A DNA stretch of 64,000 nucleotides from Thermoplasmata archaeon (GTDB lineage: Archaea; Thermoplasmatota; Thermoplasmata; Lutacidiplasmatales; UBA184), in contig JAKIWG010000001.1 of the NCBI GenBank assembly GCA_022750155.1, forward strand, positions 17,138 through 81,137, read 5' to 3'. The notes under the pieces are model-generated. The model ran no database searches, was not told where the DNA came from, and saw only the letters and a program-made list of their open reading frames with translations. Made by a program: the position numbers and the translations under genes. This document shows positions 24,186 through 59,906 of this stretch, piece after piece; position 1 is the first letter of the stretch; the number at the start of each line of letters is the position of its first letter.

Positions 24186-24810
24186 GGTGGTTCTGAGCTG
24201 GCATCCCGTCCCAGAATATAATCCGGGGGGCAGAGGGCCGTCGAGCCGCGGGATTACGCGCTCTTCCACCTCAGCTCGCGGGCCCATCGGTCAGAGCAGA
24301 GACTACTGATCGAAATTGACGCATGAGTCCATCGTCCGCATAGATCATCGCCGGCGGGGCGACTATGGGTCGAACGGCATGCGACGAAATCGGAACACCG
24401 CGACGGGGAGTGCAGGGATTGGATCATTCGGTGCTTGGCCGCTTTACCTCACTAAAGTGTCCCTGGACTCGTTGACCTAGGTGACGCCGCTTCCTCCCGC
24501 CGCACGAGTCGACTGCTGGCCGGGCCATCGGCGTCAACCAACTGACCGACGGGGCCTACAACACCCCGGCGTGCCAATGGTTCCCTGAGTGTGGAAGGCC
24601 ACGTCCTGGAAGCGGGAACGGTCCCGAGGAGCCGGCCGTCAAGTCAGCACTTCCGGCACACCACCAAGGGTCCCCTCATACGGCACGAGGGTGACCGAAA
24701 GGGCCTACTTCGGTCTCGGCCCCCCTCAGGTATTCCCGCTCGAGTGGCCTCCGCGTTGGGGAGGGGGAGTTCGTTCCCACTGGTTCATCTCCAGTGCAGG
24801 GAAACCATCG

Positions 24811-24821
24811 GGATTCGAACC
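24811..24821 (-). repeat. tRNA T-arm-like motif (reads GGTTCGAATCC on the minus strand), site 1
   Basis: Exact GGATTCGAACC on the plus strand inside a 760-bp ORF-poor gap. No complete cloverleaf could be built. Confidence 0.4.
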
Positions 24822-25049
24822 AACGGAGGATTCCCTGCGCAGGAAACCCACTACCGGATCGGTCTCCGACTGAGCACGCTGCCCCGGTCGGGGGACTCGA
24901 CATCCCGACTATCGGGCACTTCGTGGGACTCTCGATGATTCTCGGCGTCGTCCAACTCGTGTTTCCGGACGGCGCCGCTCGGCCCTCAACCACGCCCCGT
25001 CGAGCGTCAGGGCGACACGCTGATCCAGCCAAGCAATCGCTCGCTCGGT

Positions 25050-25340
25050 TCACGAGAACGGGTGGTCGACCACATACCCGTGTACGTCCGCCCGAGCCTT
25101 TCTCACCCAGTACCCGACGAACGCGGACAGGTTCCCACAGGCGGTCGAAGAGCTGCCCGCCTGGTAGCCGTTCAGCAGGTCGCGAACGGCATCAGGATGG
25201 GCTCGGTGGGACAGGGCGAGAATCTGGCCAGTGGCATCGCGACCGGCCAGCAGCTCATTGTACTGCACAATCGAGCCGATGTCCGCGATGACTACCTTCT
25301 TCGCCTCCTGGAAGGCTCGTTCGGCCGAGTACTCGGCCAT
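25050..25340 (-). CDS. hypothetical small protein
   Basis: 96-aa ORF (MAEYSAERAFQEAKKVVIADIGSIVQYNELL...) with protein-like composition. Confidence 0.45.
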   Translation of the reverse strand: MAEYSAERAFQEAKKVVIADIGSIVQYNELLAGRDATGQILALSHRAHPDAVRDLLNGYQAGSSSTACGNLSAFVGYWVRKARADVHGYVVDHPFS

Positions 25341-25707
25341 GTTCCTCGACTAATCGAGAAACGATAGATAAGGTCGACCCCCATCTCAATCAGCCGACGG
25401 GGGTCCTAGCCGTTGGCCGAGACGACGCGCGGCGCACGACGACCGGAACCTGCGGTCAAGGAATCCATACTGGGGGCGACCGATCCCTCATTGGCCCGAG
25501 GGGCGTCCACCGAAGGGCCTCCGGCTGGGAACGGCCTGGTCGGACAGTCCCTAATCCATAGGGAAGATCGCCCCGCCACGGAACGGGGCTCCACCTTTGC
25601 GGACGCGCTCCTCTTCGAACGAACCGGATTAGCCGCCGCATACCGGGCGATAGTTCACCGTGCCCGCGAACTCAGGTCCGTATCGGAGGGGGGCAAGGAG
25701 CGTAAGG

Positions 25708-26757
25708 ATGAGTCCATCGAAGAATAGCGCGAAAGCTGCGAGGGCAGTTGGAAGCGGGTTGGATCGAGCTTCGAAGCCGGCTATGAAGCGATCTATGACT
25801 CCAAGGGGTGACCCGATGCCAGAGGGCGCCTCCGTCCCGGTGTCTCCGGAGGCGCCGCAGACCACCCCCTGGAGGCCAGGTGACCGGCGTGAGCCTTCGC
25901 CGCAAGACCGAGCGATGGTGCAACGCCGCCATCCGGACATCCTACGCTGGCATGGCGAGGGTTTGTCCAACTCCAAAATCGCTCAACGACTACGTGTTCG
26001 AGTCAGAGCGGTCGACGATGCGCTGGAACGGCATCGTCAGGAACGTTCACAGAAAACCGCCCTCGCGGTTGTCCCTCCGGAGCCGACGCTTCCGGTCGAT
26101 TTCATTCCGAGTGTGGGGGGTCCCTTTGTCCCCCGGTTCCAGGAGGCCCCACCGATCCGGGTGGACCAATTTGCCGAATTGATCAGGCGCTACTCAGATG
26201 CCAACCGGCTCCGGACTGCGGAAGACCAATTCCAAGACCCTTGGGAGTTCGTGCGGTCCGAACTCGAACGTCTCGACGAGGTTGCCGAACAGCGCGAAGA
26301 TCTGCGGCTTGAACTCGGAGAAGCTGGAAGACGGCTCGCGCAGGCTCTGCAACAGATTGCTGGCCTAGACCGGAGTGTACGACAATGGGCCGCCGCCTAC
26401 GGCGCCATGGAAGCGGAGAGCAAGCAGCTGATGGAACGGAGCCGTCAGCAGTACGCGAGTCATCTAGATTGGCTGGAATCTGGCTGGCAAAAACATTCGC
26501 GACGGATGGCCTCCCAACTGGCCGAGAAGGAGGCGGCCCTCAGGGACGTCCATGCGCAACTCAGCTCGGAGAAGTCAGAAAGGGCTAGGATCGAACGACT
26601 CTTCCTGCTTCTCTTTGATGAGCGGGACCGCCTCATGAAAGAGTGCCGTTCCAGGCACAAGGAGCTTCTCGACGCCTACGATTTAATGGACGACCTGTTG
26701 AATCAAATCGAGAGTCCGGTATCGGGAGCATCACCATCGTCCGAGGGTTCTAACTGA
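25708..26757 (+). CDS. HTH + long coiled-coil protein
   Basis: LuxR/sigma-r4-like HTH (GLSNSKIAQRLRVRVRAVDDAL) followed by about 200 aa of heptad-like E/R/L/Q-rich sequence. The start is uncertain (the track ORF begins at 25660). Confidence 0.55.
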   Translation: MSPSKNSAKAARAVGSGLDRASKPAMKRSMTPRGDPMPEGASVPVSPEAPQTTPWRPGDRREPSPQDRAMVQRRHPDILRWHGEGLSNSKIAQRLRVRVRAVDDALERHRQERSQKTALAVVPPEPTLPVDFIPSVGGPFVPRFQEAPPIRVDQFAELIRRYSDANRLRTAEDQFQDPWEFVRSELERLDEVAEQREDLRLELGEAGRRLAQALQQIAGLDRSVRQWAAAYGAMEAESKQLMERSRQQYASHLDWLESGWQKHSRRMASQLAEKEAALRDVHAQLSSEKSERARIERLFLLLFDERDRLMKECRSRHKELLDAYDLMDDLLNQIESPVSGASPSSEGSN

Positions 26758-26996
26758 CTTGTAGCAGCCGACCCAAGGGGTCAGGACCCGATTCGAAGCC
26801 TTTGACGGACCCCCAACTGATTCCGCGAGTACGGGCGCGAACCTTATCCCCATCTCGAATCTGAACTTCCGGCGAATACCCGGTCAGGGCACTGATTGGT
26901 GGCACCCAGCACCTGAGCCGTGCTGCGTGGGTCTCGTTTCGGCCCGTCCAGATCCGACTCAGGGTCATGCGACGTTTCAATGAGTTCGAGCCGAAG

Positions 26997-27638
26997 CTAC
27001 CTGGCATCGATCCTCTTCAGGACCACGCCAGTCTCCAGCGGGATTCGGGCCCTCACCCACGCTGCGTAGTCAGCCAGGTTTTCGAGGTTGCACGTCTCTC
27101 CCGCGACTCGAACGTCCATGGTGTACAAGTTGACGTAACGAAATGCGTCTTTAGTCATCGACAGGTCTTCCTCCTCAAGAGGGCAGCAAGCGATGCACCA
27201 CCCAAGGGGGATAGCTTCGAGGACAGTCGGTACCCAATCGTCGAGGCGTTCATCCACATGCTCGAACGCGTTTCTTACTGCCCTCTGATAGATTGGCGGC
27301 TCTCCCCGAATTCCTAGGTGCTGCCGAAGCGCCTTGCCCCTGAGTTTGGTGCGTTCACGGGAGGTTGCGTCTCGCCCGGGGCTTGGGTTCGGCCAGAGGA
27401 GGTGTGAAATCGCTGAACTGGCCGAGAGTACGGCCTGAACTCTTGACCACGTCATTCGATTCCAGTCTCTGCGTCCATCATCTGAAGCGGGGGGGACCCT
27501 CTTCGCGAACCGCTCCAACTCTGCGAAGGCAAGCATGCAGAGGTGACATTGTTCAGTCAACTCGACGAGAAGGACCTCAAGGTGGCGGATGAATTGCCTG
27601 AGGGACTGCTTAGTGGCCAGCGACGAGTCGGAGGTCAT
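26997..27638 (-). CDS. hypothetical protein with HEPN-like RNxxxH motif
   Basis: 213 aa, helical N-terminal half, motif AVRNAFEHVDERL. Assignment is tentative. Confidence 0.5.
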   Translation of the reverse strand: MTSDSSLATKQSLRQFIRHLEVLLVELTEQCHLCMLAFAELERFAKRVPPASDDGRRDWNRMTWSRVQAVLSASSAISHLLWPNPSPGRDATSRERTKLRGKALRQHLGIRGEPPIYQRAVRNAFEHVDERLDDWVPTVLEAIPLGWCIACCPLEEEDLSMTKDAFRYVNLYTMDVRVAGETCNLENLADYAAWVRARIPLETGVVLKRIDAR

Positions 27639-27928
27639 CTTGCCTTGGCAGCACGAATGTAGTTGAAGAGAGTTGCAGGTGCGGACAGACCCTACTCTCC
27701 CCGTGATGCAACCGGGATGCGAGTTGTAGGGGTCCTCTCACGCAGTATGAATCGCTCGGGCTTCCGCTCGACGGATCCGGATCGTTTCACAGTCTCGACC
27801 ATTCAGCGAAACGCTGCCCACCTCGCCTCGGATTCGGATAGGGAGGTCGAACAGGCTGCAGCCGGGTCGCGAATCAGCAGCAGGCGCCGGAGTTATAGTT
27901 TCAGAGCCATGCGCTGAGGAGGCCACCG

Positions 27929-28873
27929 GTGCGCCTCTTCAAATTTCGACTACGGCCTCTCGGGCAGGGTAGCATACCGGCGAGCCACCTCGAGAGGATC
28001 TTCAGTTTCCCGAGAGCGCCGACTGCTTACGACCCGTCGATTGAGCCCGGGGCAATATTCGTAACCCCCGACGGCCAGCTCGACGCGAGACATGCGAGTG
28101 CCGAGCTATCGATCACCTACGATCCCGGATACCGCTACACGGTGGACGACAGCCAGGTCTTCAAGGAGGGCCTCGTCCCAAAGGATAACCTTGGGAACGC
28201 CCTCCCCAACTTGGACGTCCCCACGACTGCAATCCCAAGGGTCTGGCCCGCCTTCGGCCTGCCCGGCGGTCGACGAGAACTCTTGCTGGTATCCCATGGA
28301 CCTGGATTCTCTGCGACTACGGTAGCCAACTCGGAGGTCGCACTAACCGGCGGTGCTGCTTCTCTTTGGTATCAGGACGACGTCGTCACCGAAGCCGGTT
28401 CGGCGATCGGCGTCTCTGAAGAACTGGCGGCTGGCATCGCCGATGGCGTTCGCGGAGGAGTGCTCGCCGACTATGCCCGACCACCAAGTGGTGACGGGCC
28501 GTTGACTGTTCTAGTTAGGGATGGCACCGCGGTGTTGGCGGTAGCGCTTCGGAACCGGGCGAACTCCGAACGCTTCGCGTCGCTATCATCCGCCTTCGTT
28601 CAGGGGACTAAGCCGAAGTCACCTGTCGCCCTGCCGAACTTCGGGCTGCTTTCAGTCCGCTTTTGGGTAGCCCTATGGCAAGACATCGGACAGTCGCGCT
28701 GGCTCCTGAACGATGCCATCGAACCCTTGGGGTTCGATTGCCCGTGCTGCCTCGGCGCGGCGAATCCGAGGGAGATTGCGGCCCAAGCAAGCAGAGTTCT
28801 GCTGAGTAGGGCCCTGGAAGTATCGGACTCGGCATTCCTCTCGAGGGCCACGCAGCACGACCTCCCCCCCTGA
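27929..28873 (+). CDS. hypothetical protein
   Basis: 314-aa ORF with protein-like composition. No family recognised. Confidence 0.5.
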   Translation: MRLFKFRLRPLGQGSIPASHLERIFSFPRAPTAYDPSIEPGAIFVTPDGQLDARHASAELSITYDPGYRYTVDDSQVFKEGLVPKDNLGNALPNLDVPTTAIPRVWPAFGLPGGRRELLLVSHGPGFSATTVANSEVALTGGAASLWYQDDVVTEAGSAIGVSEELAAGIADGVRGGVLADYARPPSGDGPLTVLVRDGTAVLAVALRNRANSERFASLSSAFVQGTKPKSPVALPNFGLLSVRFWVALWQDIGQSRWLLNDAIEPLGFDCPCCLGAANPREIAAQASRVLLSRALEVSDSAFLSRATQHDLPP

Positions 28874-29398
28874 CCCCCTGGGCAGGCGTGGACTCGGATT
28901 CGAGAATTGCTCACTCGGGGAGCTCGAGTTGGCGAAGCTTGAACGATCTCCCCGGATTGGAACCTACTTGCGATGCGCCCTTCCAGCAGTCCCACGCCCT
29001 CCATAGGGTGGTCGCGGGAGCGCGCCCGGGGCCCCCGGGACTGGCCCAAAGGTCGGAATTCAACCCCGGGGGACCATCCGTGGGGGAAAGCGCCTTAGCG
29101 AGCCCTGCTGGGCCACATTCGGGCCCCCAGGGCAAGATTGCAGCTGGTTCAAGCGGGGAGCATGCGCATGGGAGACCTGGGCCCTCCTTGGGTAGGCGAG
29201 ACTGGCCGGGCCCGGTCGGAACGCTTCCAAGTCTAACGACACGAGGCTGTCCAATACACCGCGGGACCTACGCGGGTCACGGCCGCGGTCCGGACCCCGA
29301 GAATGGAGATCACCCGTTACGAGGAGCCCAGCGCCAAGGCTAGCCCCCGTGGCCGATTCCAGGGAACCCCGGCTCAGGCTCAGCGATGACCCACCTAG

Positions 29399-29887
29399 TT
29401 AACTTGGGTGGGCGTGGCGCTCGATCACGACTTCACCATGGACGTTGGTGGCCGTCAACACGTCCTTTTCGTTGATTTCGAGGACTAGGACCTCTCCCAC
29501 CGCCAGCTTGTGCGGGAGCGGGGCGACTGACGACTTCGAGCTCGCGAGCACAGGTTCAGCCGTTCGAGGAGCCACTGTGCCCGCCGCGACGACGGGGAAC
29601 GGAGCAGGGTTCGGGGCGGGAGCCTTCGCCCCGCGCATCGCCGTTGCGATAGAGTACAGTTTTTGCACCCCCTTCCGCGAGACCGCGACCTCCCCCCGCT
29701 CTACGAGCTTCCGAAGTGCGAGGTAGACCGAGTTCACGTGGAACGTCTTGCCGCTCGCCTTAGCGATCCGTTTGGCAATCTTCGAGGTGGAGATCTGAGC
29801 TCCCGCCTCGAGTCCACGAAGTTCAGCGACAATCCATTTCTGGGCTCCTCGTGGTGTTCGGGTGGTTTTCTCTGACTTCGGGGACAT
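29399..29887 (-). CDS. winged-helix DNA-binding-like protein
   Basis: 162 aa. N-terminal wHTH-like segment ISTSKIAKRIAKASGKTFHVNSVYLALRKLVERGEVAV. It lies next to the iteron-like repeats at 30004..30151. Confidence 0.5.
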   Translation of the reverse strand: MSPKSEKTTRTPRGAQKWIVAELRGLEAGAQISTSKIAKRIAKASGKTFHVNSVYLALRKLVERGEVAVSRKGVQKLYSIATAMRGAKAPAPNPAPFPVVAAGTVAPRTAEPVLASSKSSVAPLPHKLAVGEVLVLEINEKDVLTATNVHGEVVIERHAHPS

Positions 29888-30003
29888 GGTCGCCCTTCAG
29901 TCGTCGGGTTTTGTAAGGGTAACGGGCCCTGCGGGTGGGGCCACTCGCCGCCCAGACCGCCTCGGACCGCGTTCCGATCTTATGGCAGAAACCCCCCGCG
30001 CCA

Positions 30004-30151
30004 GCACCATCACTACGCGGGAAGCATCCGCAGTAGTGCGGGTGCCCGCGAGGCGGTCGGCGGTACGCGGGGCCTTTCTGGCGCAGTCACCACCATGCGG
30101 ACGCACCATCACGGCGCGCACCACTACACCAGCACGACCCCGCACCATCAC
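30004..30151. repeat. iteron-like short direct repeats GCACCA(T/C)(C/T)AC (4 copies) plus an imperfect hairpin
   Basis: Copies at 30004-30013, 30103-30112, 30118-30127 and 30142-30151. Inverted repeat CACTACGCGG...CCGCAGTAGTG lies at about 30010-30040. Confidence 0.45.
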
Positions 30152-30449
30152 TCCGCGCCGCATATCATATGCCCCGAGCGGCGCTTCGCGCGGCATCCTT
30201 CAGCCCTCCGTTAAAGACCGCGCCGATAGAACCTCGGGCTCAATATTCAATCACAGCGAGGTTCGCTGCAGTCGAGTCGGGATGGCGGCCCGGACCCCCC
30301 ATCCGGAGGAAGACGCCGTAGCTTCTCGGGGCTAAGCGTCCGGTCGAGGCTCGACTGTCTAACCCTACCAGCCGCAACGCCATTCGCAGGGACGGGAGTC
30401 GTACGGGTGCTCGGGAAAACGCGGCACGGGGCATCGTCAATGGATGATA

Positions 30450-30460
30450 GGATTCGAACC
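30450..30460 (-). repeat. tRNA T-arm-like motif, site 2
   Basis: Exact GGATTCGAACC on the plus strand in a 1.4-kb ORF-poor gap. On the minus strand an anticodon-arm-like hairpin GTTCC-ATTCTAG-GGAAT lies 5' of it, but no acceptor or D arm. Confidence 0.4.
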
Positions 30461-31282
30461 GATCGTGAATTCCCTAGAATGGAACTGACCCCTACCGGGG
30501 GGGCATGTGAGACCGAGGGCCCGAGCTGACTCGGAGGGATTTCCCCCGTCAGGTTTGGTCCCGGCGAGGAGCATCTGTGTTTTATTAGGCTGTTAACCCA
30601 AATGCCTTCCCCGGACCCTGCGAGGCCCCCGGTCGATGGGGCGCGCATCGGTTTCCTTCTGGGAGGTTGTGGACAAGCTGTAGGGGGCGCATCGCCCCGC
30701 TGGTTGAGTTAGCGAGTGGCCATGGGGAGTGGCTGGTGGGGGCCGGAGTGGCACTGGCCACCAGCAATGGCCGCCCGTGGCCGCTACTTCACGGCGCCGT
30801 TCTCTGGATCTCGGTGAGGAAGCGGTGCAGCGGACACCATCGGCTACCTCCACCATGACGCCTCCGGGCGACTCGAGCAGGGGTGGTGTGGCGACTCTGC
30901 CGACGTACTCCCATTTCGGGCGAAGTGATCGAATATCGCGAAGGAAGAGTTTCCGAGCTTCATCGGCTCGATCCCTGGCGCTCCCGTGGCCAGATAACCG
31001 TCCGCGCGTCGCGTCCGCAGCGGTCGGCCTCCGCATCCTCCGCGGCGTGATTCCGCATTGTGCATCCGCCGCGGGGTCCACGCGCCACGTACGGCGGAGA
31101 GGGTCGCCGCTTCCGCCTGAGTCCTCCGAGTGCTCGCGATGCGATGCCTCCTCCAGGCGGACGCGGAGATGGCTGGGTTTCGTAGTTTTCGAGCCCGAAT
31201 GGGGACCCTTTCTCCCGCGGGGTGCTTGTCTTGCCTCCCCGGGACGCTGCGACTCGCGAGGGCCGGTCGGTTGACCATCAAA

Positions 31283-35007: not shown

Positions 35008-35042
35008 AGACTTCGTGCCGCCGATGCCGTGAGTTCAGGGAC

Positions 35043-37358: not shown

Positions 37359-37792
37359 CTCGAGCGATAGACGTTGCTCTCACTTACGCCGGCGAGCAGG
37401 AGGGCTACGTTCGAGCTGTCGCCGTTGAGCTCCGGGAGCACGGGGTTCTGCTGTTCTTTGCCCCATTCGAGGAAGTGAACCTTTGGGGAGAAGACCTCAT
37501 TCCCTACCTCGAACGAGTCTACAGCGAGTGGGCACGGCTGTGCGTGATGTTCATCTCAAAGCAATACGTCGACAAGGCCTGGCCGAGACATGAACGGCAA
37601 GCTGCCCTGTCGAGGCAACTCACTGAGCAATCCGCCTACATTCTACCCGTTAGGTTCGATGATACTGAGGTCCCCGGTCTGAGCTCGTCCATTTATTTCG
37701 TTCGGGCCGAGAAGCACACTCCAGTTGAACTTTCCGCGATGATCATGCAGAAGCTGGCGTCGCCGACTCCAGCGGCGAGCTCAGGTGGCTGA
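37355..37792 (+). CDS. stand-alone TIR-domain protein
   Basis: 145 aa. DVALTYAGEQ (betaA), VLLFFAPFEE...WGEDLIPYL, and VMFISKQYVDKAWPRHERQAAL (the W...E region typical of TIR). The ATG overlaps the upstream stop (ATGA). Confidence 0.8.
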   Translation: MTRAIDVALTYAGEQEGYVRAVAVELREHGVLLFFAPFEEVNLWGEDLIPYLERVYSEWARLCVMFISKQYVDKAWPRHERQAALSRQLTEQSAYILPVRFDDTEVPGLSSSIYFVRAEKHTPVELSAMIMQKLASPTPAASSGG

Positions 37793-38242
37793 GCTGTGGG
37801 ATAATTCAACGACGTGCTGGGTCGCGCCTCCGCTGCTCCAAAAGTTGAGCGGCGGCACCTTTTCGTCCCGGCGGTGTCCCCATCTGCCCACCCCCGACAC
37901 CCTGATCAAGGGACACTTTGCCCCCGGGAGGTGTGAGTCGCCCCAGTGGGACCTTTTTCCCAACCGACCCGTTTCCCCGAGCGGGGCTCACGGGCCCTTC
38001 GATGCTCCCCTTGAGGTGGATCTAAGCGAAACCCGCTTTCCTCAGAGAGTCCAGAGTCCCGCCCCTGGGTGTGGGTTACGACAGGCTCCCCTGACTGGAC
38101 CCCTTCGGGCTTTTGCGCTTGACCGCCGGGGACTTCCGAGCGCTTCTCCGTGATTTGTTCGCGATCGCGCGTCGGGGGTCCGAAACAAGGAAAACCCAAG
38201 GGGCATACCGTCGGTCGCGATGGCAGCGGGGATGGACACGCT

Positions 38243-40178: not shown

Positions 40179-40494
40179 CGCGGGCGTACTCGCGCGAGCC
40201 CTCGACTCGGTTTACAGCGTAGGCTCGGCCGCGATCGACCAGGTTCTCCCCGACGGCAGAAATGATTCTACGATTCCCAACGTCGGCGTTGGGGGCTCCC
40301 GTGGTTCGGCCAGCTGGACACTTTGGGACAGCGGGGATGGGCAAGCCTCCCCGGGTGGCGACAGCTGCCACCGTCGGGGGAATCCCTCCCATTCTACCCA
40401 CCTCTTGAGGCGACCCCTCGGGGGGAATCCTCGGAGGGTCGGTTCACTGACCTGCAATGGGGCGGACCTCTTCGCGGGACCCGTCTGGGTTGCG

Positions 40495-40505
40495 GGATTC
40501 GAACC
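40495..40505 (-). repeat. tRNA T-arm-like motif, site 3
   Basis: Exact GGATTCGAACC on the plus strand in an 870-bp ORF-poor gap. The neighbouring GGCC-GAAA-GGTCC hairpin (minus sense) has a GNRA loop. Confidence 0.4.
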
Positions 40506-41052
40506 AATCTGCGAATCTTGAGAACGGACCTTTCGGCCTCCTTCCCCTTCCTTGCCTCTCCCGCCAACCCGGCTAGGGTGGATGCGACGGAACACGAGGC
40601 TCATTGTGACGGGCCGGGGGCGGCGCTTCATCGGCCTCGCGGCAGTCCTGATGAACGACTGTTTCGACCTTTGGCGGCGCTTCATCCCTCTGCCGAAGGA
40701 GCTCCAGCTCACCGCCGTCGGAAGACGCTGGGACCTGACGCCCCGAACCGATGGACCACTTCGGACAACCCTACTACGAAACCCCTCAGGACCTAGCCGA
40801 CCGACCCTTTCATGATGGGGCCAGCCCGAGGCGCGGAGGGAATGGAGTCGACGCCCTGGACTCCGAGGTTCGAATCGGCCGGTTCCCTTACCGCGGAAGA
40901 CAACGAGGAAACGGTCGAGTGCCGAGTGGCGTTCAGAAGTTGAAGCAGAAGGTGCCGCGTTGCCCTGCCATGCGGTTTGGGAGCCGCTCAACCGGAAGCA
41001 CGACTCTGCGCGGGGCGGAGCCTACATCTAGCCGAGTCGAGTTGGGAATCCA

Positions 41053-43542: not shown

Positions 43543-44045
43543 TTTTGTAACGCCCCGCTACTCGCGTTACAATTTGGTAACATTAAGGCTTGCCCACGGC
43601 CTTGGACAACCGGGGGGGGTTGGAATTCGGGCACGAGTCCGCATCGAACTTTCCGTTGAAGTTCGGCGCGATGCCTGCTTGGATGGCCGATTCTGTCCGA
43701 TGGGAGCGGGAGCTTCGCGTCAAGAGAATGTAGTTTCGGCCATTCGGGAAGGAACCTCGCTGGCCCGATGGGGGTTGCTTCTGTCCTCGATCTTCGGGGT
43801 CTGTGCCCTGGTCCTCACAATATTGCTCCACTAGACCTGGCACACGCCCCGCCGTCGGGCCCTTCAGGGCGCGGGTCTCGATTCGCAATCTCTGGTCCTG
43901 GACGAGAGGAGAACTCGACTCCTTGAGATTGCCCGGAGGGTCTTGGTGAGGGGAACGGGGTCGGAATCCCTGGGGCTGGATTCTTGGGCGGTGCGGTCGG
44001 GTCTTGGTGAGGGGTGTGCCTGCCCTTTGAAAGTAGGGCGGAGAA

Positions 44046-44055
44046 GATTCGAACC
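44046..44055 (-). repeat. tRNA T-arm-like motif, site 4 (GATTCGAACC)
   Basis: Lies in a 1.1-kb ORF-poor gap. Flanking sequence is collinear with site 3 (minus sense GTTCTC-N3-4-ATTCG-N7-8-GGTTCGAATC). Confidence 0.35.
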
Positions 44056-44640
44056 GAGATCGAATGCCCGAGAACCGACATCGCCTTGATTTCCCGGTAG
44101 CGGGTGCCGTGTTCCGTTCTCCAATCATAGTGAACAGAGGTAGATCTTCGTGATTGGCTAGAGGAAGCTCGATCCGAGTCGCTGACCCCGGTCCCTTATC
44201 CACTAGTTGACAAGGGTCAGGTACCAGTCACTCGAGCCGGGCTCCAGGGGCCTTGAACCCGGCGTTCCGCTCCTCGAGACCCAGATGGAGCGCCGCTCGC
44301 CTCCCCGATCCGCTGACCCGAATTCAACGTGAAGTCGCGTGCGGTCGCCACGAGATACCGAAGTGAAGTCCCGCTCCCACGGCAGGTCGGGCGGTCCACG
44401 ATATGCCGCAATCCATCGAATTGGTCGAAGGCCCCGGGCCGGACTCATGTGGAGGTTCGAGAACCGGTAGCGTGGCTTGTAGAGCGATGATACCGCATAG
44501 AGACCGATTGATGCAGTCAATACGCCCGGCATATTGATGATGTGTCCAATCCGGTCAACCAATGGTAACGGTTATTAACTCACCCGATCTTGGGGTTGCT
44601 GCAAAGCTGCCCCGCTAGGGGTGGAGTGAGCTCAGTGAGA

Positions 44641-48704: not shown

Positions 48705-49622
48705 GGTTGGGCGTTACCACCTCACAGGCAGCTGCCGGCCCGCCCCGTGAGAGGACCGAGAAACCCCACGCCGGCTCGAATCGGTCCGCGGGCCTGACTC
48801 TGGCACCAGTGCCCCCGGTTTGTGGTGTAATCGGGACTGCCCCCGCGGCCAGGGAATTGCCTGGAAAACTCCCGCAGGAAACGTGATAGAGCCGGGAGGC
48901 GAGTTTGCGAGCGGCTCCACGCTTGGACCATGACCATGGGAATGAATTCCGGTCGCAGGGACTGCCATCGACCGCTCGGGAGGGCTGAGGATCGACCGCA
49001 AGCTCGCGGTCGGATGTCCGGGAGGATGGACCCCCTGGCTGCCTCAGCTTTGCTTGAGAATCTCGGTGCGGCCCAAGAGCCGAGTTCGATCACCCTATCG
49101 ACCGAGGCATAGCTTGTCCCTTCGCCGAAAAGGGAATCCAAGTGTTGGTAATACTCCCCTTCCCACTCCGGGTCGGGGGTTCGAACTTTCATGCCATTCC
49201 CCCTCCCCGCACATCGGGGAATACTAGGAGCGGAGTTACTTGGCCGACCCCGCTCCTCTGCCGGGCGAAGCGGCTCCCAGTTCCGTTCGCCACCTTCCGA
49301 AGGTTAGTCGTCTCTAAGACTTGGTTCGCCGGCGACTATGGAGACCCTCCGCCTCGGGTGGGGGTGGCCGTGGTTTGATTGGCGGAATCGGCTCTGTTCC
49401 CGAGGGGCCCGGAGGCGCGCGGGGCCATGGCTTGGGCGCTGCCATAGCCGGGCATGCGGGAGCCCGGTCGCGGATCCCTCCACTCTCAAGGGCCTTTGAG
49501 GGTCTGCCTACATCAGGGGCTGGGGCTTCCGGCCATCGTTCGGGGGGCGAGATGGAAATTGGGGGACCACGCGCTGAGATCTCCAGTTCCCGGCGTTTCT
49601 TGTCCTGGCTCATGGCACCGAC

Positions 49623-50123: not shown

Positions 50124-50480
50124 AATCCAGACTTCTCCTCAGACGACCGAATCTCGGATTGGGGCGTAAACCTATCGCCAGTCGTGGGGCCGGGCCACGG
50201 GGTGGCCCGAGGATCCAGAAGGTCCCGGCAGCGTCCCCAAAGGTTCACGCAAAAGCGTCCAGAGCTCCGCGATTCCGATTTCTCACTCTTGGCCGAGCGC
50301 CGCGATCCTCCCAGGGTCGACGCCCTGCCGGGATGCCAGGCTCGTAAATCACATCACCCCGCCAATACTCCCGTCAGAGGACCCCTCGACAACGACAATC
50401 CTGGGCCACCGTGTGTTTTGATTTTTGGCTAAATCCACCCGAGAGTCGGGGCTTTTCTGTCAAGGCGGGTCCTCTCCGGA

Positions 50481-50489
50481 GATTCGAAC
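50481..50489 (-). repeat. tRNA T-arm-like motif, site 5 (GATTCGAAC)
   Basis: Lies in a 1.25-kb ORF-poor gap. The minus-sense hairpin GTTCC-GTTACCG-GGAAC lies 10 nt 5' of it. Confidence 0.35.
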
Positions 50490-51373
50490 TTCATTGCGGT
50501 TCCCGGTAACGGAACTGAAGCCGATGCAAACGCCCTCTACGACATCGCGGGCGAGGCAAATCTCTACCTTCGCAGGCGCTTCGTTGCCTCCCCATGGTAC
50601 ATGGATGCGGCTATGGGCGGGTCGAACCTGGCATCCCCGGCGACCTGAGGGGCGGAGACATCCTGCACCTCGGTTGGCAGGCCATCCTGGGGTCCTCAAA
50701 GAGCGAAGCGCAGACCCCCACAAGGTCGGTAACGGAATATGTCTCCACGCCCGGAACCTACGGCGTCAACAGGTCGGTGACGATTGAGGAAATGACCGCG
50801 TCGAGCGGTGCAGGGGACGCGCGGTTCGTCTCGCGGAACCAGACGGCCTCGTTCTCGCAGTCTGGCCTCCCCCGGTGCTGAGGGAGACTCGTCTCGAACC
50901 CGGGTTGGAATGGGCCCCGGTTCCCAACCTTTTCGAGCGTGCCGTCCAGGTCACCCTATCGCTTCACCTGGGCCGCGATCCATAGTCGGTCCGTTAACTG
51001 CGGGGAAACAAGTTGGCGGCTGGAAGGATTGCCGAGTGCCCGGTAGGCATTGCGCGCTTCACACGAGTCACTCGGCCGTAGGTGAGGATGGAAAATTGCG
51101 GCGGCCGGCCAACTGAATGCAGCCATCGAGACTGCACCGGGATTGAAGGAGCTCCAAGGAACCGTCGGAGCACGGAGTCGTCAGCGGGGTGCCACGGCGC
51201 TCGGGAGCCTATCCATGGGGAGGCCGGCTAGAACTCAGTGCGTACCGGCGGGTGAATGAGCCCCCATTCCTCGGGGCTCCCGGCTGGCCCCAATTCGGCG
51301 CCGCTTGCCACCGCCGCTGGGTGCATCGGCCATGGAAAGCGCCATTGCCCGTCATCGAGTGGACTGACCCCTC

Positions 51374-54300: not shown

Positions 54301-54748
54301 CCGTTCCAGTGGGGTTCGTGCCGTAGGAGAAGTTTGCCGAAACCTCAGTCCCTTCCACTGACCAACTGATGACTCCGTTGGTGCCGGAGCTCCCAATGGA
54401 GACCGCCACGGCAAGGATGCTGATACAGCCGAATTGTTTCTTGATATGGGTCGTGGCGTGCCCACCGGTCATTCGACCCGCGTGGGCACCCGCCCCCAAC
54501 CCCATGCTGGAGCGGAGGTGCGAATCACTACTGACACCGGTGTTGGCCGATGAGGTCGCGACGAAGTGGGACCCCCCCACCGAATTCCGGTCGACAGCGA
54601 CCTCCCGATTTTGGGTTCGCGAAAGTGCGGACATGCCGGGGTTGATCAGGAGCAGGAGCACGCCGATTGCGCCTGCTGCGCCGATGACCCTGGCAAATCT
54701 TTTCGGCGAAAGGGTCCACGATTTCCGGTTGACTCGGAGTACTCCCAT
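51374..54748 (-). CDS. very large membrane-anchored surface protein (adhesin/S-layer-like)
   Basis: 1124 aa. N-terminal anchor VIGAAGAIGVLLLLINPG, FN3-like and carboxypeptidase-regulatory-like segments (TNITDANGHYAFAF), and abundant NxS/T sequons. Confidence 0.75.
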   Translation of the reverse strand: MGVLRVNRKSWTLSPKRFARVIGAAGAIGVLLLLINPGMSALSRTQNREVAVDRNSVGGSHFVATSSANTGVSSDSHLRSSMGLGAGAHAGRMTGGHATTHIKKQFGCISILAVAVSIGSSGTNGVISWSVEGTEVSANFSYGTNPTGTGWSSVTPSSNSVTLSSLSTNSVYYYQIGLTGSCQTPHNTYARTGSIYTTTTGGGSCPEGTLVIKNAQVYGVPSGGGMATVSWSVSSLPSLSPGPTTTVTVTFSPVGSGVWKSVTNPVSPLTQTGLSLTTYVVTISASAPCWSTATISAEFSDACTPTELTGYVTIYPTLGPVYYAYVTLSGGVVPIGGAMTNITDANGHYAFAFSCSTGSAIVTVTARAMGYVTFTTGNAALSPHQTTWLNASINLTKTNDFGLYNSPGGDSDYNLSYPGDLGSTWTVSDSSEISYQTTGVSASLVTTGIPSGLPSGDSTVLKFTGTDGSSTSYPLAVSYVGLGTPPAPNIGITGTALFPALSSPVFLEFYVYVPTSSASANFSVDALLSDGNFLSGETQKFTNQVGPLDGKGEQCAAPTISIPRGNWVQVVCDLSLTQNLYISQFMVDYVNGWNKATPGTFVAYFDSIRLVNAPYAKDITNGNFEDAKLYGWVTQGSPTISTSTVFAGNQSMQMQLNPGTCGNDHGCSYTEQAWQQFRVPNNIDNSGPVNFAMNLVGEVNFGISCSSPNCPTYQAANVTILDQTYDYYETNTNFTSATAGWSQVSMNITRFEGHVIELHIGVTALGSSSHTIGTVNAYFDDFKVLPKGSFMEENGSTAHRLYTGQLNLPTATYNPSCNSGGNSNTYVFAAPYEAAANNSWKINDWSSGGPTYMTSNLTLAVDFQQLNHVCGNVEDTLDLSITAMANATGPITPPSGATVTGTSYGEADVATLCMGVKETKLSGNSIYGSWPGFDSAATQNTLGLGSSSPATAQLVSQEFTAQDFAVSAAEEITIMAIEVGLGIETFGLTIVMEAVAGLALELAVGLLENLFGTSSLGGSTSICTMSGSNLWTEVLSGGTVAGGNLSHSSVAEASVSRLQLFAGCLDGGSGTCSSGGPYGGVYLVTFVTQAVLCVWQVNQTGGCSGPNGNPYATETATISLVLRV

Positions 54749-55005
54749 TGTGGGACGCCTGCGCGAGATGGTGCAGCACGATTAGGGTTATGTATTTTCG
54801 TACACGTATCTGTAGGGCTGCTGTACGCGGGGTGGGAGCGAATGGGGTACGACTCGCTCAGATTTGGCGGATTCAGTTGGGTCATTGGTCGCGACTTCGG
54901 ACTCAGCGTCGATGCAGTCGGGAGCGGGCCGCCAGGGATATTTATCGTGGGACAGCTCCTCTCCCTTGGGGAGCCTCCGAAGTGGAGGTGGCTTAGGCAA
55001 CCTGC

Positions 55006-56289
55006 ATGATGCGAATGACGAGAGGTTGGAACGGACTGGCGGTAGGGATGGTCAACTCGGTCCTGGTAGGTTGCCTACTCGGATCAGGGGTCTGGATCTA
55101 CGGGCTCACCCAGGGGGCTGGTGAGAGCCCCCCGCTACATTCGTTGACCAGCCTCGGGAGTTGGGTACGACCTCTCTGTCCTGATCCCCGAAACTGCCCG
55201 AATTATCTCAGCGCAGGGGAAACACCTAGATTGGCGGCTGTTTCATATGTTTCGCTTGGGAATCTGTGGATTGCTGCGGTCACCAACGGACCGCTCGTCG
55301 AACTCAGCCAAAATGGGCAGGTGCTTCTATCGAGTACGGCGCTCGGGTGTTACCCATCTCAAGTATTTTACCCTGGCCACGGCCAGCTCGTCTACATCCC
55401 ATGCTCGGGCAGCGGGCCCTCCGCGAATTCCACAATCATCGTATGGAATTGGGGGTCAAACTCTTTAGTCTCCCGGTTCGAGGGGCCCGATACGTGCAAC
55501 GGACCCCTGACCATGGACTCTAGAGCCAATCGCTTGTACTGTCCAATAATGGCCACCCAGGACCCCGCATGGGTAGTCGATCCACTGAATGGCTCGATTT
55601 CGCGTTTTCCTGCCCCCGGGGGACCTGGAGTCAGCGTGCTTTACGACGACTCCGCCGGGAGCTTACTCTTCGCTGGGGAAAATAGCACCACAATTGAGTC
55701 CCTCAATCCGACCTCCGGTCGTGTAGTCGCCCTAATTCCGGTCGGTGGCTACCCGATAACGATGGTACAGAGCCCGAACACTAAGGAAGTTCTGGTCGTC
55801 ACCAGTTCCTCCCCGTCCAATCTCCCCTCCGATCAATCCCGATTGCTAGTCCTTAACAGCTCTACATTGGTCCCGACCTTTTCCGCAAACCTGCCGTCGC
55901 CGGTCTCATGGGGTGGCGAGCCAATCACCTTCGATGGGGCAAATGATGAGGCTTTTCTCGCTTCTCGGGGGGGATTAGTCGTGTTCGATCTCGATCGGAA
56001 TACGATCGTCCTGGCCAGCGTGGGAATCCAGTATGCTTTCGGCGAAATCGCGGTGTTCGGGTATGACCCGAATTCGAGCACCTTCGCCTATGCGCCGGAC
56101 CCTCAGAGCGGTGCCTACGTGGAGTTTGTGAACATAAGCCATATCCTCACCTCCGAACCGCCGTTCTCGACGGTCCCGTACTTCGGGATGTGGACCCCCG
56201 TGATGGCTGGGACGGCGGGATTCGCAATTTCGGGCGCGATCCTATCCCTCCGCCGGCAGAAACCGCCACGGGGGGCCAATCGCACATGA
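55006..56289 (+). CDS. membrane-anchored beta-propeller-like surface protein
   Basis: 427 aa. N-terminal TM (AVGMVNSVLVGCLLGSGVWIYGL), C-terminal TM + basic tail (AGTAGFAISGAILSLRRQK), and repeat-like strands. Confidence 0.65.
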   Translation: MMRMTRGWNGLAVGMVNSVLVGCLLGSGVWIYGLTQGAGESPPLHSLTSLGSWVRPLCPDPRNCPNYLSAGETPRLAAVSYVSLGNLWIAAVTNGPLVELSQNGQVLLSSTALGCYPSQVFYPGHGQLVYIPCSGSGPSANSTIIVWNWGSNSLVSRFEGPDTCNGPLTMDSRANRLYCPIMATQDPAWVVDPLNGSISRFPAPGGPGVSVLYDDSAGSLLFAGENSTTIESLNPTSGRVVALIPVGGYPITMVQSPNTKEVLVVTSSSPSNLPSDQSRLLVLNSSTLVPTFSANLPSPVSWGGEPITFDGANDEAFLASRGGLVVFDLDRNTIVLASVGIQYAFGEIAVFGYDPNSSTFAYAPDPQSGAYVEFVNISHILTSEPPFSTVPYFGMWTPVMAGTAGFAISGAILSLRRQKPPRGANRT

Positions 56290-59200
56290 ATCGGGGAGGT
56301 GCCGGGAGAGACCATGACCTGACCGACGACCATGTGTCGTCCGAACTATCCTGGCCGCTCAGCGGATTCCCCTTACCACGGGTTTCCCCCGCTCCCGTAG
56401 GCGGTCGGCGCCGCCTTTTCAACGCTATCAGGGCGACAGCGGCGACGGCCGTAGCGCCCGCTCCAGCAATCCAAAGATAGCCCACAGCCGACTGGGCCGG
56501 ATTGCTCGATTGATTCGGAAGTGGCAGAACCGCCACGAAGGAAACGGTGATGTATTGCGGCTGACCGACGACCTGGACACTTCCCCCCGCAGGGGTTACG
56601 TATCCTACGACCGAGGATATTGAGAACGGATAGGTCCCGTTGGGCACACGGACCGTGAGGGTGCTCGAGGACCCATTTAGATTGCTCCCATTCACCACAA
56701 CCGCCCAGGGAGTGCCCTTAATCAAACCGGACTCCTCAAAGGTCACCAAGTAATACGTCGTCCGTGGGTTTGACGAGAAGAGTATCGACCGGTTCAAATC
56801 GTTCCCGGCCACGGTGATGTTTCCACTCGTTGGAGTAGCCTGGAACGTGGGAACTTGGGACACGTTGAACGGGTAGGTTCCGTTCGGCTCGTTGAAGGTA
56901 AGCTGACCGGCCGTGGATTGCTGACTGCTTCCATTCAGGGTCACCACCCATGCCTTTCCTATCGGCAGCCCGGAGGCGATGAAATCCACGGAGTAGAGCG
57001 CGGGAAGAGTCTTCTGGAACTGAGTCGTGAGACTCCGGTTTGCGCCCGAAACGGTAACCGAGCCACCGGACGGACTTGCGAAATAGCCCGGAACCTGTCC
57101 AATGGAATAGTTATACGTTCCATCAGGGACGATTGTCGAAAAGGTTGTGCCCGTTCCGGCGAAAGAGACGTTCGCGATGGACGCCGACCAGGGACGCCCA
57201 GTGGGCAATCCGGACTCCGACAGGCTTAGGTTATAGGCACCGGGGCTCGTAACAACCGAAATAGTCCCAGACCGGGAGTCGACTACAGCCATGCACCCGT
57301 TCTCGGGATCGTAGGCCAGGCCTTCCGGATTCGCGCCTACTGATACAGATTGAGCGACGGAGAGGGTTTCGGGAGAGATGATCGAAACGTTATTCGACCC
57401 CGTGTTGGCGACGTACACCGCACCGTTCCCGGGGTCATAAGAGACCGGGCCCGGCAGGCTGCCTACGGGGATTGTACCTATCGTTAGATTGTCGGACGCA
57501 TTGATTACGGATACCGAGTCCGACCCCGCATTGGCGACGTAAAGTCGCCCATCAACGGCATCGAACGCCACGCCGTCCGGTTGACTACCCACCACAATGT
57601 TCTTCACCACCGAATTTGTCGCGGTGTTTATCGCCGTGACCCAACCGAAACCCGAGTCGGTGACGTAGACGTAGCCGTTGTTCGGGTCGTAGGCCATCGC
57701 GGTCGGATTCAGGGAGACCTTGATGGACTTCTGGACTGTGTTCGTTTGCGGGTCTATGAGGGTCACGTTCCCCACCCCAAACCACGACCCCGAAACGTAG
57801 ACCCCTCCGGTCGGAGCGAAGATGACGTTCGCCGGAATCTCACCGACAGGGATTGAGAGAAAGCCATTCGGGACACTCGAATTCGGGGTCGCCACGCTCT
57901 TCCCACCGATACTACTGAAGATTCCCGCGATCGCAGCGTACAGGGCGCCGTTACTGGGGTTCACTGCGACATCGACCGGTTGAAACCCTACTCGGATCGG
58001 GAGCCCAGGAAGCAAGCTGGTCGCTCCAACAGTAGTGAGGTTATTCGATCCGGTGTTCGCAATTACGAGTTGATGAGAGCTTGCGTCGTAGATGATCGCG
58101 TTGGGCTCGAATCCCAGGACGACCGACTTGGTAGCCCGAATGTTGGAACCTTGAAAAAGAGTCAGGTTGTCCGAGGCATAGTTCGGGACGAGCACCTGGT
58201 CGGTGCTCGGGTCGTAACTTAGGCCTGTCGGAGCCCCCCCGACGAAGACGTTTCCCCCGACGACTTGAATAGAGGTGGGGATGGCCGAAACAATCGAGCC
58301 ACCCGCGCTAGCGACGAAAAGTTGACTGTCGCGAGGATCAATCAGGATGCCGGACGGTGTGAAGGATGTCGAGACCGTGGCAGATAGGCGGTTTGATGAA
58401 ATATTGAGGACGCTGATATTGTCTGACGCCCGATTGGCGACATATAGGAGTCGAGCCCCTGAATCATATGAGGCCGATCCGGGGTCCTGTCCGGCTAGGA
58501 TCGAGGCTACCGGGGTACCCGTCGAGGTGTTGATCACGGTCACGTTTCCCCATGTGCCGGGATTCGAGTTGACAACCAACAGCCTGTGCGCGCCTGAGTC
58601 GACCGAAAGAGCCACCGGCCCCACCCCGGCTCCGTAGAATCCGACAACTCGGTTCAGGGTCAAGTTAACGATGCTGACGTTGCTGCCGAGGAGGCTGGCA
58701 ACGTAGAGCCTCGCCTTGGCGGGGTCTACCGCTAGGGCAGAAGGGGAGATCACGGAAATGGAAGCGAGAGGTGCCCAATTCGTCGTGTCGATTACGGTCA
58801 CATTGTCGGAGCCTTGATTCGCGACGAACAGCTCGCGACTTGATTCGACGTAAGCGAGGGAGTACGGCGGCGCCCCGACGGGGACAAACGCTACAAGTGC
58901 GTCCGTCGACAGGTTAACGACGGCGACATTGTCCGAAATAGAGTTCGCCACAAACGCGAGGCTCCTATTCGTGGCGACAGCACTCGCTTGCGGGCCCTGA
59001 CCGGTTGCCCCAATGGCTGAATTTCCCGGGGAAACGGCTCCGGTCAGCAAGCTTAGGGTTTGTCTCACCGAACCCGACTGAACGCCAATGCAATCCGGGG
59101 AGTTCGCTTGGTTACTTGAGCGACTAAGTGGGGGGTTCATAAACCACGAACTCAAATCGACGCTCGAATGGCTCGGGTGATCGGACATCCTCGCACGTGA

Positions 59201-59335
59201 GTCGCTTCCACCGAATTCGCTCGAAAACCCGACGAATAAGACCATCGCGACAGCGGCCACTTCAGCGGCCTGAGGCCAGTAATCCGTCCGCAATCTCCGC
59301 GGGTGATAGAATCGAGATGCTCGCCTAACTCTCAT
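56147..59335 (-). CDS. large YVTN beta-propeller repeat surface protein with C-terminal TM anchor
   Basis: 1062 aa. Many repeats (LFVANQGSDNVTVID, LYVANRASDNISVLN, VYVANTGSNNVSII), then Ig-like YNYS/YPFN repeats, then anchor YLWIAGAGATAVAAVALIALKRRRR. The low-complexity tail overlaps gene 55006..56289 convergently. Confidence 0.75.
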   Translation of the reverse strand: MRVRRASRFYHPRRLRTDYWPQAAEVAAVAMVLFVGFSSEFGGSDSRARMSDHPSHSSVDLSSWFMNPPLSRSSNQANSPDCIGVQSGSVRQTLSLLTGAVSPGNSAIGATGQGPQASAVATNRSLAFVANSISDNVAVVNLSTDALVAFVPVGAPPYSLAYVESSRELFVANQGSDNVTVIDTTNWAPLASISVISPSALAVDPAKARLYVASLLGSNVSIVNLTLNRVVGFYGAGVGPVALSVDSGAHRLLVVNSNPGTWGNVTVINTSTGTPVASILAGQDPGSASYDSGARLLYVANRASDNISVLNISSNRLSATVSTSFTPSGILIDPRDSQLFVASAGGSIVSAIPTSIQVVGGNVFVGGAPTGLSYDPSTDQVLVPNYASDNLTLFQGSNIRATKSVVLGFEPNAIIYDASSHQLVIANTGSNNLTTVGATSLLPGLPIRVGFQPVDVAVNPSNGALYAAIAGIFSSIGGKSVATPNSSVPNGFLSIPVGEIPANVIFAPTGGVYVSGSWFGVGNVTLIDPQTNTVQKSIKVSLNPTAMAYDPNNGYVYVTDSGFGWVTAINTATNSVVKNIVVGSQPDGVAFDAVDGRLYVANAGSDSVSVINASDNLTIGTIPVGSLPGPVSYDPGNGAVYVANTGSNNVSIISPETLSVAQSVSVGANPEGLAYDPENGCMAVVDSRSGTISVVTSPGAYNLSLSESGLPTGRPWSASIANVSFAGTGTTFSTIVPDGTYNYSIGQVPGYFASPSGGSVTVSGANRSLTTQFQKTLPALYSVDFIASGLPIGKAWVVTLNGSSQQSTAGQLTFNEPNGTYPFNVSQVPTFQATPTSGNITVAGNDLNRSILFSSNPRTTYYLVTFEESGLIKGTPWAVVVNGSNLNGSSSTLTVRVPNGTYPFSISSVVGYVTPAGGSVQVVGQPQYITVSFVAVLPLPNQSSNPAQSAVGYLWIAGAGATAVAAVALIALKRRRRPPTGAGETRGKGNPLSGQDSSDDTWSSVRSWSLPAPPRFMCDWPPVAVSAGGGIGSRPKLRIPPSQPSRGSTSRSTGPSRTAVRR

Positions 59336-59885
59336 CCCGCTCCGAAGCTCACCTGTGGGAGGTTAGCCATAGCGGGGCCCCTCCAAATAACTTTCAGGTT
59401 GGCGATGCGGCCCTGCTCAGAGCGAGACCTCGTCGGTTCGAACTCGCTGGCCGTCAGATTCGCGTCGCTTCGCCACCAGTCAAAGGCTGTAGGAAGCGTC
59501 CACAGGGGGGTCCCAGGGCCCGGCCCTTTGAATACGTAGCCCTCAGAATGAGCACCCCTCAGTATCTAAGGCCTCTGTGGAGTTGGCAGGGCCGCTCGGT
59601 GTTCGGCTGGCCCAGAGTTCCAATCGGCCCGTCACCCGAGCCAGACGCGCGGAGAAATGGGCTCCAGAATGGTCGAGCGGTTGGACCTCTGTCGCCGGTA
59701 ACCGCGACTGAGGCGACTGAGAGCTGAATGACTAGGAGTCCCACTGTACTGGCGAATCGTTGGGACATGGCGTGGATTTACTAGAAGCTTCGAGCTTCGC
59801 TGCGGGGGGCGGCTGAGGAAAATCGAACTGTTTCGGGCTGTCGCTCGCGCCGTCAGAGGGGGACCGTCTTTGCCCCCCGTGTAAA

Positions 59886-59896
59886 GGATTTGAACC
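59886..59896 (-). repeat. T-arm-like hairpin (minus sense AAAGG-TTCAAAT-CCTTT), site 6
   Basis: Perfect 5-bp stem plus 7-nt T-loop-like loop, 10 nt from attR. No matching acceptor or anticodon arms. Confidence 0.35.
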
Positions 59897-59906
59897 TTTG
59901 TGCGAG

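Follow-up and report, generated by a model that had tools for sequence, protein, structure and literature searches.

The window analysed here is a 64,000-nt stretch (positions 17,138 to 81,137 of contig JAKIWG010000001.1, assembly GCA_022750155.1) from the metagenome-assembled genome (MAG) of a Thermoplasmata archaeon, which has a GC content of 68% and is labelled G000 where it is compared with other genomes. An earlier reading of the window, made from the letters alone, had pointed to long gaps poor in open reading frames (ORFs) between functional gene modules, each gap carrying a short motif that resembles the T-arm of a tRNA. The segment from 10342 to 59922 is a 49.6-kb island, which is integrated at the 3' end of a tRNA-Gly(CCC) gene and brings along its own integrase gene (10399-11886). 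Its limits, with the left and right attachment sites (attL and attR; att for such sites in general), are given by the following features:

10283-10356, plus strand: tRNA-Gly(CCC) gene, the integration target, on the attL side (ARAGORN; Rfam RF00005, 65.3 bits)
10342-10357, plus strand: left 16-bp att core TCCCGACAACCGCACT, formed by the last 15 nt of tRNA-Gly and one flanking base (exact match to 59907-59922)
10366-10375, plus strand: GTTCATATCC box, 8 nt past the core and ~30 nt before the integrase start (same position in 17 of 17 integrase loci)
10399-11886, plus strand: intact tyrosine integrase of 495 aa (PF00589, E = 4.5e-13)
59884-59929, plus strand: site s6, the attR of the island, a GGATTTGAAC box followed by the exact 16-bp core at 59907-59922 (repeat match, alignment, cmsearch)

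The distal direct repeat at 59907-59922 is identical to the 3' end of tRNA-Gly in 16 of 16 positions and lies in the same orientation, and the GC fraction is about 0.60 between the repeats compared to 0.70 outside. Since s6 holds this 16-bp copy of the tRNA-Gly 3' end, it constitutes the attR. The integrase gene starts 43 nt beyond tRNA-Gly(CCC) and is the only copy of its family in the genome, as judged by tblastn against the window and the genome. Its ORF is continuous and aligns end to end with six homologues; thus, the gene is not split by integration. The protein contains an invariant CxxC...CxxC zinc ribbon at residues 354-372 and a conserved C-terminal extension (last 100 aa) past the catalytic domain, both of which are unusual among tyrosine recombinases. 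The cargo of the island is mainly of the defence type and includes a DUF262/GmrSD-N protein with HEPN, a DNA methylase, a WD40-Roc protein with TIR, and DarT with a macrodomain protein, as well as large NHL/beta-propeller proteins and a TrpD-kinase cassette.

The motif described by the sequence-only reading, GGATTCGAACC, occurs exactly at 24811, 30450, and 40495 of the window. Copies of this 11-mer with one mismatch are present at 44045 (AGATTCGAACC; one position left of where it had been placed) and 59886 (GGATTTGAACC), a shortened copy (GATTCGAACT) is found at 50481, and GTTCGAAC is found at 49179. With up to one mismatch the window contains 13 matches, compared to 2.37 +/- 1.57 in shuffled sequences, of which none out of 100 reached 13. 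Apart from the one shifted position, the described occurrences were therefore borne out, as were the excess over chance, the common orientation (all six main sites lie on the plus strand), the TTCC-N7-GGAA hairpin motif at sites 1, 2, and 5, which was confirmed by inspection of the sequence, and the collinearity of sites 3 and 4. The similarity among the sites also reaches past the 9-11-nt core named in that reading, since a gap-free alignment of the six sites spans 46 nt. Each block consists of a GGATTCGAAC box, about 9 nt that mostly end in GCGAAT or GGATT, CCC, and a core of ~12-16 nt, whereby it is this core, ~12 nt downstream of the box on the plus strand, that resembles the 3' end of a tRNA. 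In leave-one-out nhmmer searches of the 2.13-Mb assembly each omitted site was the top match outside the training set (E = 5e-5 to 0.13), and 13 further exact 11-mers in the genome, which are mostly T-loops of true tRNAs, scored far below the sites. Taken together, the ranking and the 46-nt alignment mean that the repeat is real and longer than first noticed. Pairwise similarity between the gaps is confined to the block, and no common motifs were found in the 300-nt arms flanking the sites. Altogether, the locus contains six strong att-type sites and no fewer than two weak ones, which all lie in direct orientation on the plus strand. Besides s6, these are:

24809-24854, plus strand: s1, a GGATTCGAAC box and a palindromic core TTCCCTGCGCAGGAA, which is not Gly-like (3 of 12 positions; alignment, cmsearch)
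30448-30493, plus strand: s2, a box and a diverged core of the tRNA-Gly type (7 of 12; alignment, cmsearch)
40493-40538, plus strand: s3, a box and a diverged core of the tRNA-Gly type (8 of 12; alignment, cmsearch)
44043-44088, plus strand: s4, a box and a diverged core of the tRNA-Gly type (8 of 12; alignment, cmsearch)
50478-50523, plus strand: s5, a box and a diverged core of the tRNA-Gly type (8 of 12; alignment, cmsearch)
49175-49220, plus strand: weak site, a GGGTTCGAAC box and a core CCCCCTCCCCGCAC that is identical in 13 of 14 positions to the 3' end of the host tRNA-Leu(CAG) (cmsearch 8.3 bits; sequence)
60690-60735, plus strand: att-like relic outside the live repeat, GGATTGGAAC ... 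CGCCCGGCACCCGCA, ~0.9 kb from tRNA-Tyr (cmsearch 11.6 bits; sequence)

The comparison of the cores with tRNA-Gly was made in a fixed register over the 12 nt after TCCC, with all 12-mers of the island as background. Eight matches are reached by 0.3% of these 12-mers (P = 0.003) and seven matches by 1.6% (P = 0.016), and for s2-s5 the best of the host tRNA 3' ends is that of tRNA-Gly(CCC), the tRNA at which the island resides. The tRNA-Leu-like core at 49175 suggests that the element from which this segment derived had targeted another tRNA. Elsewhere in the genome, at G000:C50:10978-10992 (L077), the 3' end of yet another tRNA type (TTCCCTGCCCCGCTA) is present as a copy in a place without a tRNA gene; it is probably a further att relic.

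A model of the block built from its sequence only, R1, was run over 150 genomes of the genus (the unpublished genomes G019, G178, and G179 are counted in search tallies only). In these related Thermoplasmata, the box was found beside copies of tRNA 3' ends at the same distance as in the island. Sites with a Gly core are present in G114 (two copies, at +1.05 and +1.95 kb from tRNA-Gly), G047, and G113, sites with a Thr core (CCCTCCCGCGGCT, as in the tRNA-Thr beside the integrases of loci L033 and L036) in G154, G006, and G056, and sites with a Met core in G114 and G142, whereas the core in G157 corresponds to an intron-bearing tRNA, which G105:C9 has in intact form. The box lies about 11-13 nt left of the start of the tRNA identity. 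The occurrence of the same box at a fixed distance from the 3'-end copies of several tRNAs marks it as an element-side arm and not as a tRNA fragment, and the comparison indicates that the GGATTCGAAC box belongs to the element-side (P) arm of the attachment site in this integrase family. The sequence-only reading had seen in the motif a T-loop signature on the minus strand and, as one option, tRNA 3'-fragment scars of serial integration in a mosaic island. The likeness to a T-loop is real, but it belongs to the box of the element arm and not to a piece of tRNA; the idea of integration scars in a mosaic is supported, but with a different anatomy, as the tRNA-derived part is the core ~12 nt downstream.

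All 17 further loci of the integrase family, which were retrieved via the integrase from soil Thermoplasmata MAGs, lie directly downstream of a full tRNA, and six tRNA targets are represented (Gly-CCC, Thr-GGT, Leu-CAG, Leu-CAA, Cys, and Met). All the integrase loci that were inspected (L031-L039, L083-L091) contain an (A)GTTCATATCC box 8-10 nt past the tRNA end and ~30 nt before the integrase start. This box is probably the TATA box of the integrase gene and possibly also a P' arm site. An arrangement in which the GGATTCGAAC box and the GTTCATATCC box form inverted arms of the attachment site of the free element (attP) was considered and downgraded, because the second box sits at the expected TATA position of the integrase.

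On the basis of these data, the internal sites are probably relic att junctions that were left by serial accretion of related elements. The proposed history would be as follows. The tyrosine integrase would insert an element into the 3' end of tRNA-Gly(CCC), whereby the P arm would carry the GGATTCGAAC box 11-13 nt left of the tRNA identity, which extends from the 3' strand of the T-stem through the 3' strand of the acceptor stem. After integration, the box and the core would end up together at the distal junction, the attR, of which s6 would be the live copy. Related elements would have integrated beside resident ones, so that s2-s5, the 49175 site, and the 60690 relic would represent older junctions. 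Surplus integrases would have been lost later and the internal cores would have mutated, until a welded composite remained that would now move only through its two outer identical 16-bp repeats. Judging by the perfect outer repeats and the worn internal cores, the composite was probably a single unit when it arrived or last moved; this order of events is inferred. The box would then be a binding site for a protein, either the integrase or an accessory factor, and this protein might also read the T-loop region of the target, whereas the internal sites would presumably be inactive today. The ORF-poor DNA by each site would be non-coding arm DNA and eroded element backbone. With this, the suggestion of the earlier reading that the motifs are recombination sites appears right as to their origin, as att-type junctions.

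The same hotspot in relatives is consistent with such a history. The distance from tRNA-Gly to tRNA-Tyr is 2.4 kb in G113 compared to 51 kb in G000, and in G114 tRNA-Gly lies ~3.2 kb from the flanking core genes. Within these 2.4 kb, G113 carries tRNA-Gly, an integrase fragment that comprises residues 3-184 only, an attR with a Gly core, and tRNA-Tyr (G113:C4, ~117900-120480; L074/L075). As no more than a fragment of the integrase is left before the attR, the decay of such elements can be seen here directly at the same hotspot. The Gly-core sites of G047 and G113 are found at a similar distance from tRNA-Tyr as the relic at 60690 in the window. The right flank of the island ends with the following gene:

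61609-61714, minus strand: intron-bearing tRNA-Tyr (Rfam; missed by ARAGORN in default mode)

As the synteny of the genus core resumes at this tRNA-Tyr, the segment 59923-61600 between it and the live attR is probably older island DNA. Between the attR and the 60690 relic, at 60085-60536, there is a DUF7557 protein of 63 aa that overlaps a ParE-family toxin of 87 aa, likely a toxin-antitoxin pair. Because of its location between the live attR and the older relic, it looks like a tiny remnant module of an earlier element.

The earlier reading had proposed to compare related islands at the module boundaries. Almost no cargo homologues were found at the DNA level in the genus, so that such a comparison was possible with G105 only. 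G105 and G000 are 83% identical in the flanks and 79% in the integrase, and inside the island G105 shares only the integrase, a small gene, and one arm of ~200 nt, whereas the cargo on both sides is unrelated. The arm is the following:

24645-24841, plus strand: ~200-nt arm left of s1, shared with G105 up to a point within the s1 core (76% identity over 198 nt)

This arm was found only in G105 among the 150 genomes, and G105 carries its own series of plus-strand sites with Gly-like cores. The homology thus stops inside the core of s1 and the cargo differs on both sides, a breakpoint that supports the sites as past recombination points.

Several observations weigh against the accretion of related elements as the origin of the internal sites. 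The core of s1 matches tRNA-Gly in only 3 of 12 positions, and its type, TC(C/T)CTGCGCA, occurs in just 3 of the 150 genomes (s1 of the window, G105:C8:16331, and G058:C18:154339). The G058 element with this core sits at tRNA-Leu(CAA); in G000, none of the tRNAs has an end of this type (46 ARAGORN calls, approximate whole-genome search). No integrase remnants were detected in the internal segments by tblastn at E <= 10, so that the loss must have been complete, if the units once had integrases of their own. Furthermore, no GTTCATAT box follows any of the internal cores. The GGATTCGAAC box is perfect or differs in one position in s1-s5, while the cores are only ~60-70% Gly-like. This gap is partly a matter of ascertainment, as the sites were found via the box and sites with a degenerate box do exist; it could also mean that the box is under selection. 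Sites further from the tRNA are not more decayed than those closer to it, which means that the history was not a simple stacking in this host. Neither a free attP form nor an excision product was seen: there was no viral contig with the integrase, and 9 of 9 metagenome copies are integrated by a full tRNA. In addition, a CCCGAGAAC/GGAAC variant of the block with a TTCC(C)...(G)GGAA inverted repeat recurs across several genomes, where some copies lie far away from tRNAs and integrases, and simple independent decay does not predict such a recurrence. In G142:C88 (L071, 2746-3640), an intron-bearing tRNA-Met is followed after 3 nt by a complete CCCGAAGAGGGAGC-type block and ~770 nt further on by a Met-core block. 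A full block that abuts a tRNA gene does not fit a simple attR model.

Some of these points could be explained if the internal sites were working secondary att sites, at which an integrase, the island's own or one acting in trans, gains, loses, and swaps integrase-less cassettes, so that the island would resemble a loose cassette array anchored at a tRNA. All five internal sites have retained an intact box, the homology to G105 is interrupted exactly within the core of s1 and the cargo to its left and right differs, recognisable gene modules are separated by the sites, and the complete block directly abutting tRNA-Met in G142 would also fit. Furthermore, s3 and s4, which flank the DarT/macrodomain module, share a central GAGAAC, and the same variant is found in G105 and G184. 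However, no two cores of the island are identical beyond ~6-8 nt and only s6 matches the tRNA core, whereas tyrosine recombinases normally require identity in the overlap region. For none of the orphan internal cores was a partner direct repeat found in G000, G056, G033, or G184, and the spacers are long non-coding stretches instead of compact cassettes. Neither a junction nor a circle was observed. We therefore regard a present-day function as secondary att sites as unlikely, even if the better-kept boxes, the CCCGAGAAC/GGAAC variant, and the odd s1 core keep this explanation alive. It is similarly improbable that the box-plus-core blocks serve in particular as working secondary att sites for integrase-less defence cassettes, with the box as recognition element. 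If it were so, the integrase family would capture and exchange such cassettes in a tRNA-anchored manner, as an archaeal equivalent of cassette-array systems, for which the DarT/macrodomain module between s3 and s4 would be an example.

A further possibility would be that the block is cis-regulatory DNA and acts, for example, as promoter or operator of the gene that runs leftward next to each site. Each site lies 315-560 nt right of the start of a minus-strand gene, the site in G056 lies 245 nt from the start of a Fic gene, and on the minus strand the sequence of the box, GTTCGAATCC, is similar to that of the GTTCATATCC box at the TATA position of the integrase. The distances to the start codons, however, far exceed the ~30 nt seen for the integrase box, and the sites are flanked by genes that have no relation to each other. 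In relatives, the box accompanies the copies of tRNA 3' ends at island ends, whatever genes adjoin. TTCGAA-type words are not enriched upstream of host genes, in a host promoter word analysis that was uninformative. Overall, a regulatory role of the block is very unlikely.

The sequence-only reading had not been able to fold any site into a complete tRNA, which agrees with Rfam at E <= 10 and with ARAGORN. It had nevertheless offered decayed island-borne tRNA genes and a family of structured non-coding RNAs as options, for which the searches gave no support. Rfam over 22000-62000 at E <= 10 returned nothing but the real tRNA-Tyr at 61609-61714. ARAGORN called an intron-containing "tRNA-Arg" at 24671-24803 beside s1, which is a poor model. 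The check for covariation that the reading had proposed was run on the six-way alignment: five pairs are predicted, none of them compensatory, at -0.95 kcal/mol, so that there is no consensus structure. The z-scores of single-site folding are mostly near 0, and four of the six folds are no better than those of shuffled sequences. No match of the sites to a host tRNA exceeds 11-15 nt, save for the 16 nt of s6. A tRNA or tRNA-like RNA was thus rejected on the basis of Rfam (gathering thresholds and E <= 10), ARAGORN with introns, and single and consensus folds. Some features do favour decayed tRNA genes or structured tRNA-like RNAs on the minus strand, with an anticodon-arm-like hairpin and a T-arm: in s2 and s5, the spacing GTTCC-N7-GGAAC-N10-TTCGAAT on that strand would suit an anticodon arm, a variable loop, and a T-arm, the T-stem of s6 is perfect over 5 bp, and s1 folds well (z = -3.46). 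On the above results, this explanation is nevertheless most improbable; in addition, the acceptor and D arms are absent, G105 has not retained the outer stem of s1, and the supposed "anticodon arm" on the minus strand of s6 is nothing but the 3' end of tRNA-Gly in reverse complement.

The lack of genes around the sites, which had been described in the sequence-only reading, was assessed with a codon-usage score trained on the Pfam-supported genes of the island, which themselves score 0.10-0.24 per codon. Nearly all ORFs in the gaps score 0.06 per codon or less. The exceptions are 25050-25340 on the minus strand, just beyond the first gap as it had been drawn, and possibly a 95-aa ORF at 50594-50881 on the plus strand; bar the latter, the gaps are indeed ORF-poor. 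The stretches, to which no strand is assigned, are:

24288-25049: stretch without coding signal around s1 (codon-usage scores, as for all that follow)
29888-31282: stretch without coding signal around s2
40179-41052: stretch without coding signal around s3
43543-44589: stretch without coding signal around s4
48705-49622: stretch without coding signal around the weak Leu-type site
50124-51373: stretch around s5, mostly without coding signal, with the possible 95-aa ORF at 50594-50881
59336-60084: stretch without coding signal around the attR (s6)

In four long ORFs of the island (25660-26757, 28888-29343, 17377-18189, and 37785-38153) the codon-usage score is close to zero or negative, and they are possibly not genes; in that case, the non-coding DNA of the island would exceed the listed gaps.

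Accretion of elements and decay of their junctions would account for the assembly of a ~50-kb archaeal defence island and for its ~7 kb of non-coding DNA. In addition, a copied tRNA 3' end that is preceded at 11-13 nt by a GGATTCGAAC box provides a signature by which island ends and old junctions may be recognised in uncultured soil Thermoplasmata, including those with diverged cores, which escape standard searches for tRNA fragments. It also defines the att layout of an integrase family with at least six tRNA targets, for which no earlier characterisation was found in the literature searched.

The arrangement of modules that are parted by sites of the same orientation beside a tyrosine recombinase is reminiscent of integron arrays with IntI and attC sites. 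An integron was rejected, as the integrase reaches only 23.8 bits with the IntI model TIGR02249 (cutoff 265) and the sites do not have attC architecture. In contrast to integrons, the modules of the island comprise several genes in both orientations, the spacers are 0.75-1.4 kb of non-coding DNA, and there is no conserved hairpin. Closer parallels come from islands at tRNA genes. In Streptococcus islands of the ICESt1/ICESt3 type, integrative elements and integrase-less cis-mobilisable elements (CIMEs) accrete in tandem at tRNA genes (Pavlovic 2004; Bellanger 2011; reviewed in PMC5704250). These islands share with the one described here several att copies in direct orientation at one tRNA, att-flanked units that lack an integrase, and a composite that can move via the outer sites; they differ in that the host here is an archaeon, there are no conjugation genes, and the internal cores have diverged. 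Because the internal att cores are diverged and not intact, cis-mobilisation of sub-units of the island is doubtful. The tycheposon-built islands of Prochlorococcus contain scattered partial tRNAs and degenerate remnants (bioRxiv 10.1101/2020.12.28.424599). They resemble the island in the tyrosine recombinase by the tRNA, in newcomers that push older elements inward, and in cargo modules that include defence genes, whereas the integrase family and the host domain are unrelated, the relics described here keep the arm box, and there are no fragmented integrases inside the island.

For archaeal elements, tandem integration and module exchange at one locus as well as loss of the integrase after integration have been reported (PMC8371274). 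With the non-suicidal archaeal elements, which follow the lambda paradigm (pNOB8 type), the island has in common that the integrase stays intact on integration and that the target is the 3' end of a tRNA; the likeness is one of locus layout, and the integrase here has 495 aa with a C-terminal zinc ribbon and extension and comes from uncultured soil Thermoplasmata. The Islander database catalogues islands in tRNA genes (tDNA) with crossover in the T-stem class, including tandem arrays (PMC4383910). In these islands, too, a displaced 3' tDNA fragment marks the end and the crossover falls in the T-stem/acceptor part, and in contrast to their tandem arrays there is a single integrase in the window. 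Accretion and decay at a tRNA hotspot are thus already well known in bacteria and have been reported for archaea; what is new is the conserved arm box, the unusually long series of relics, and their occurrence in a little-studied lineage of soil Thermoplasmata.

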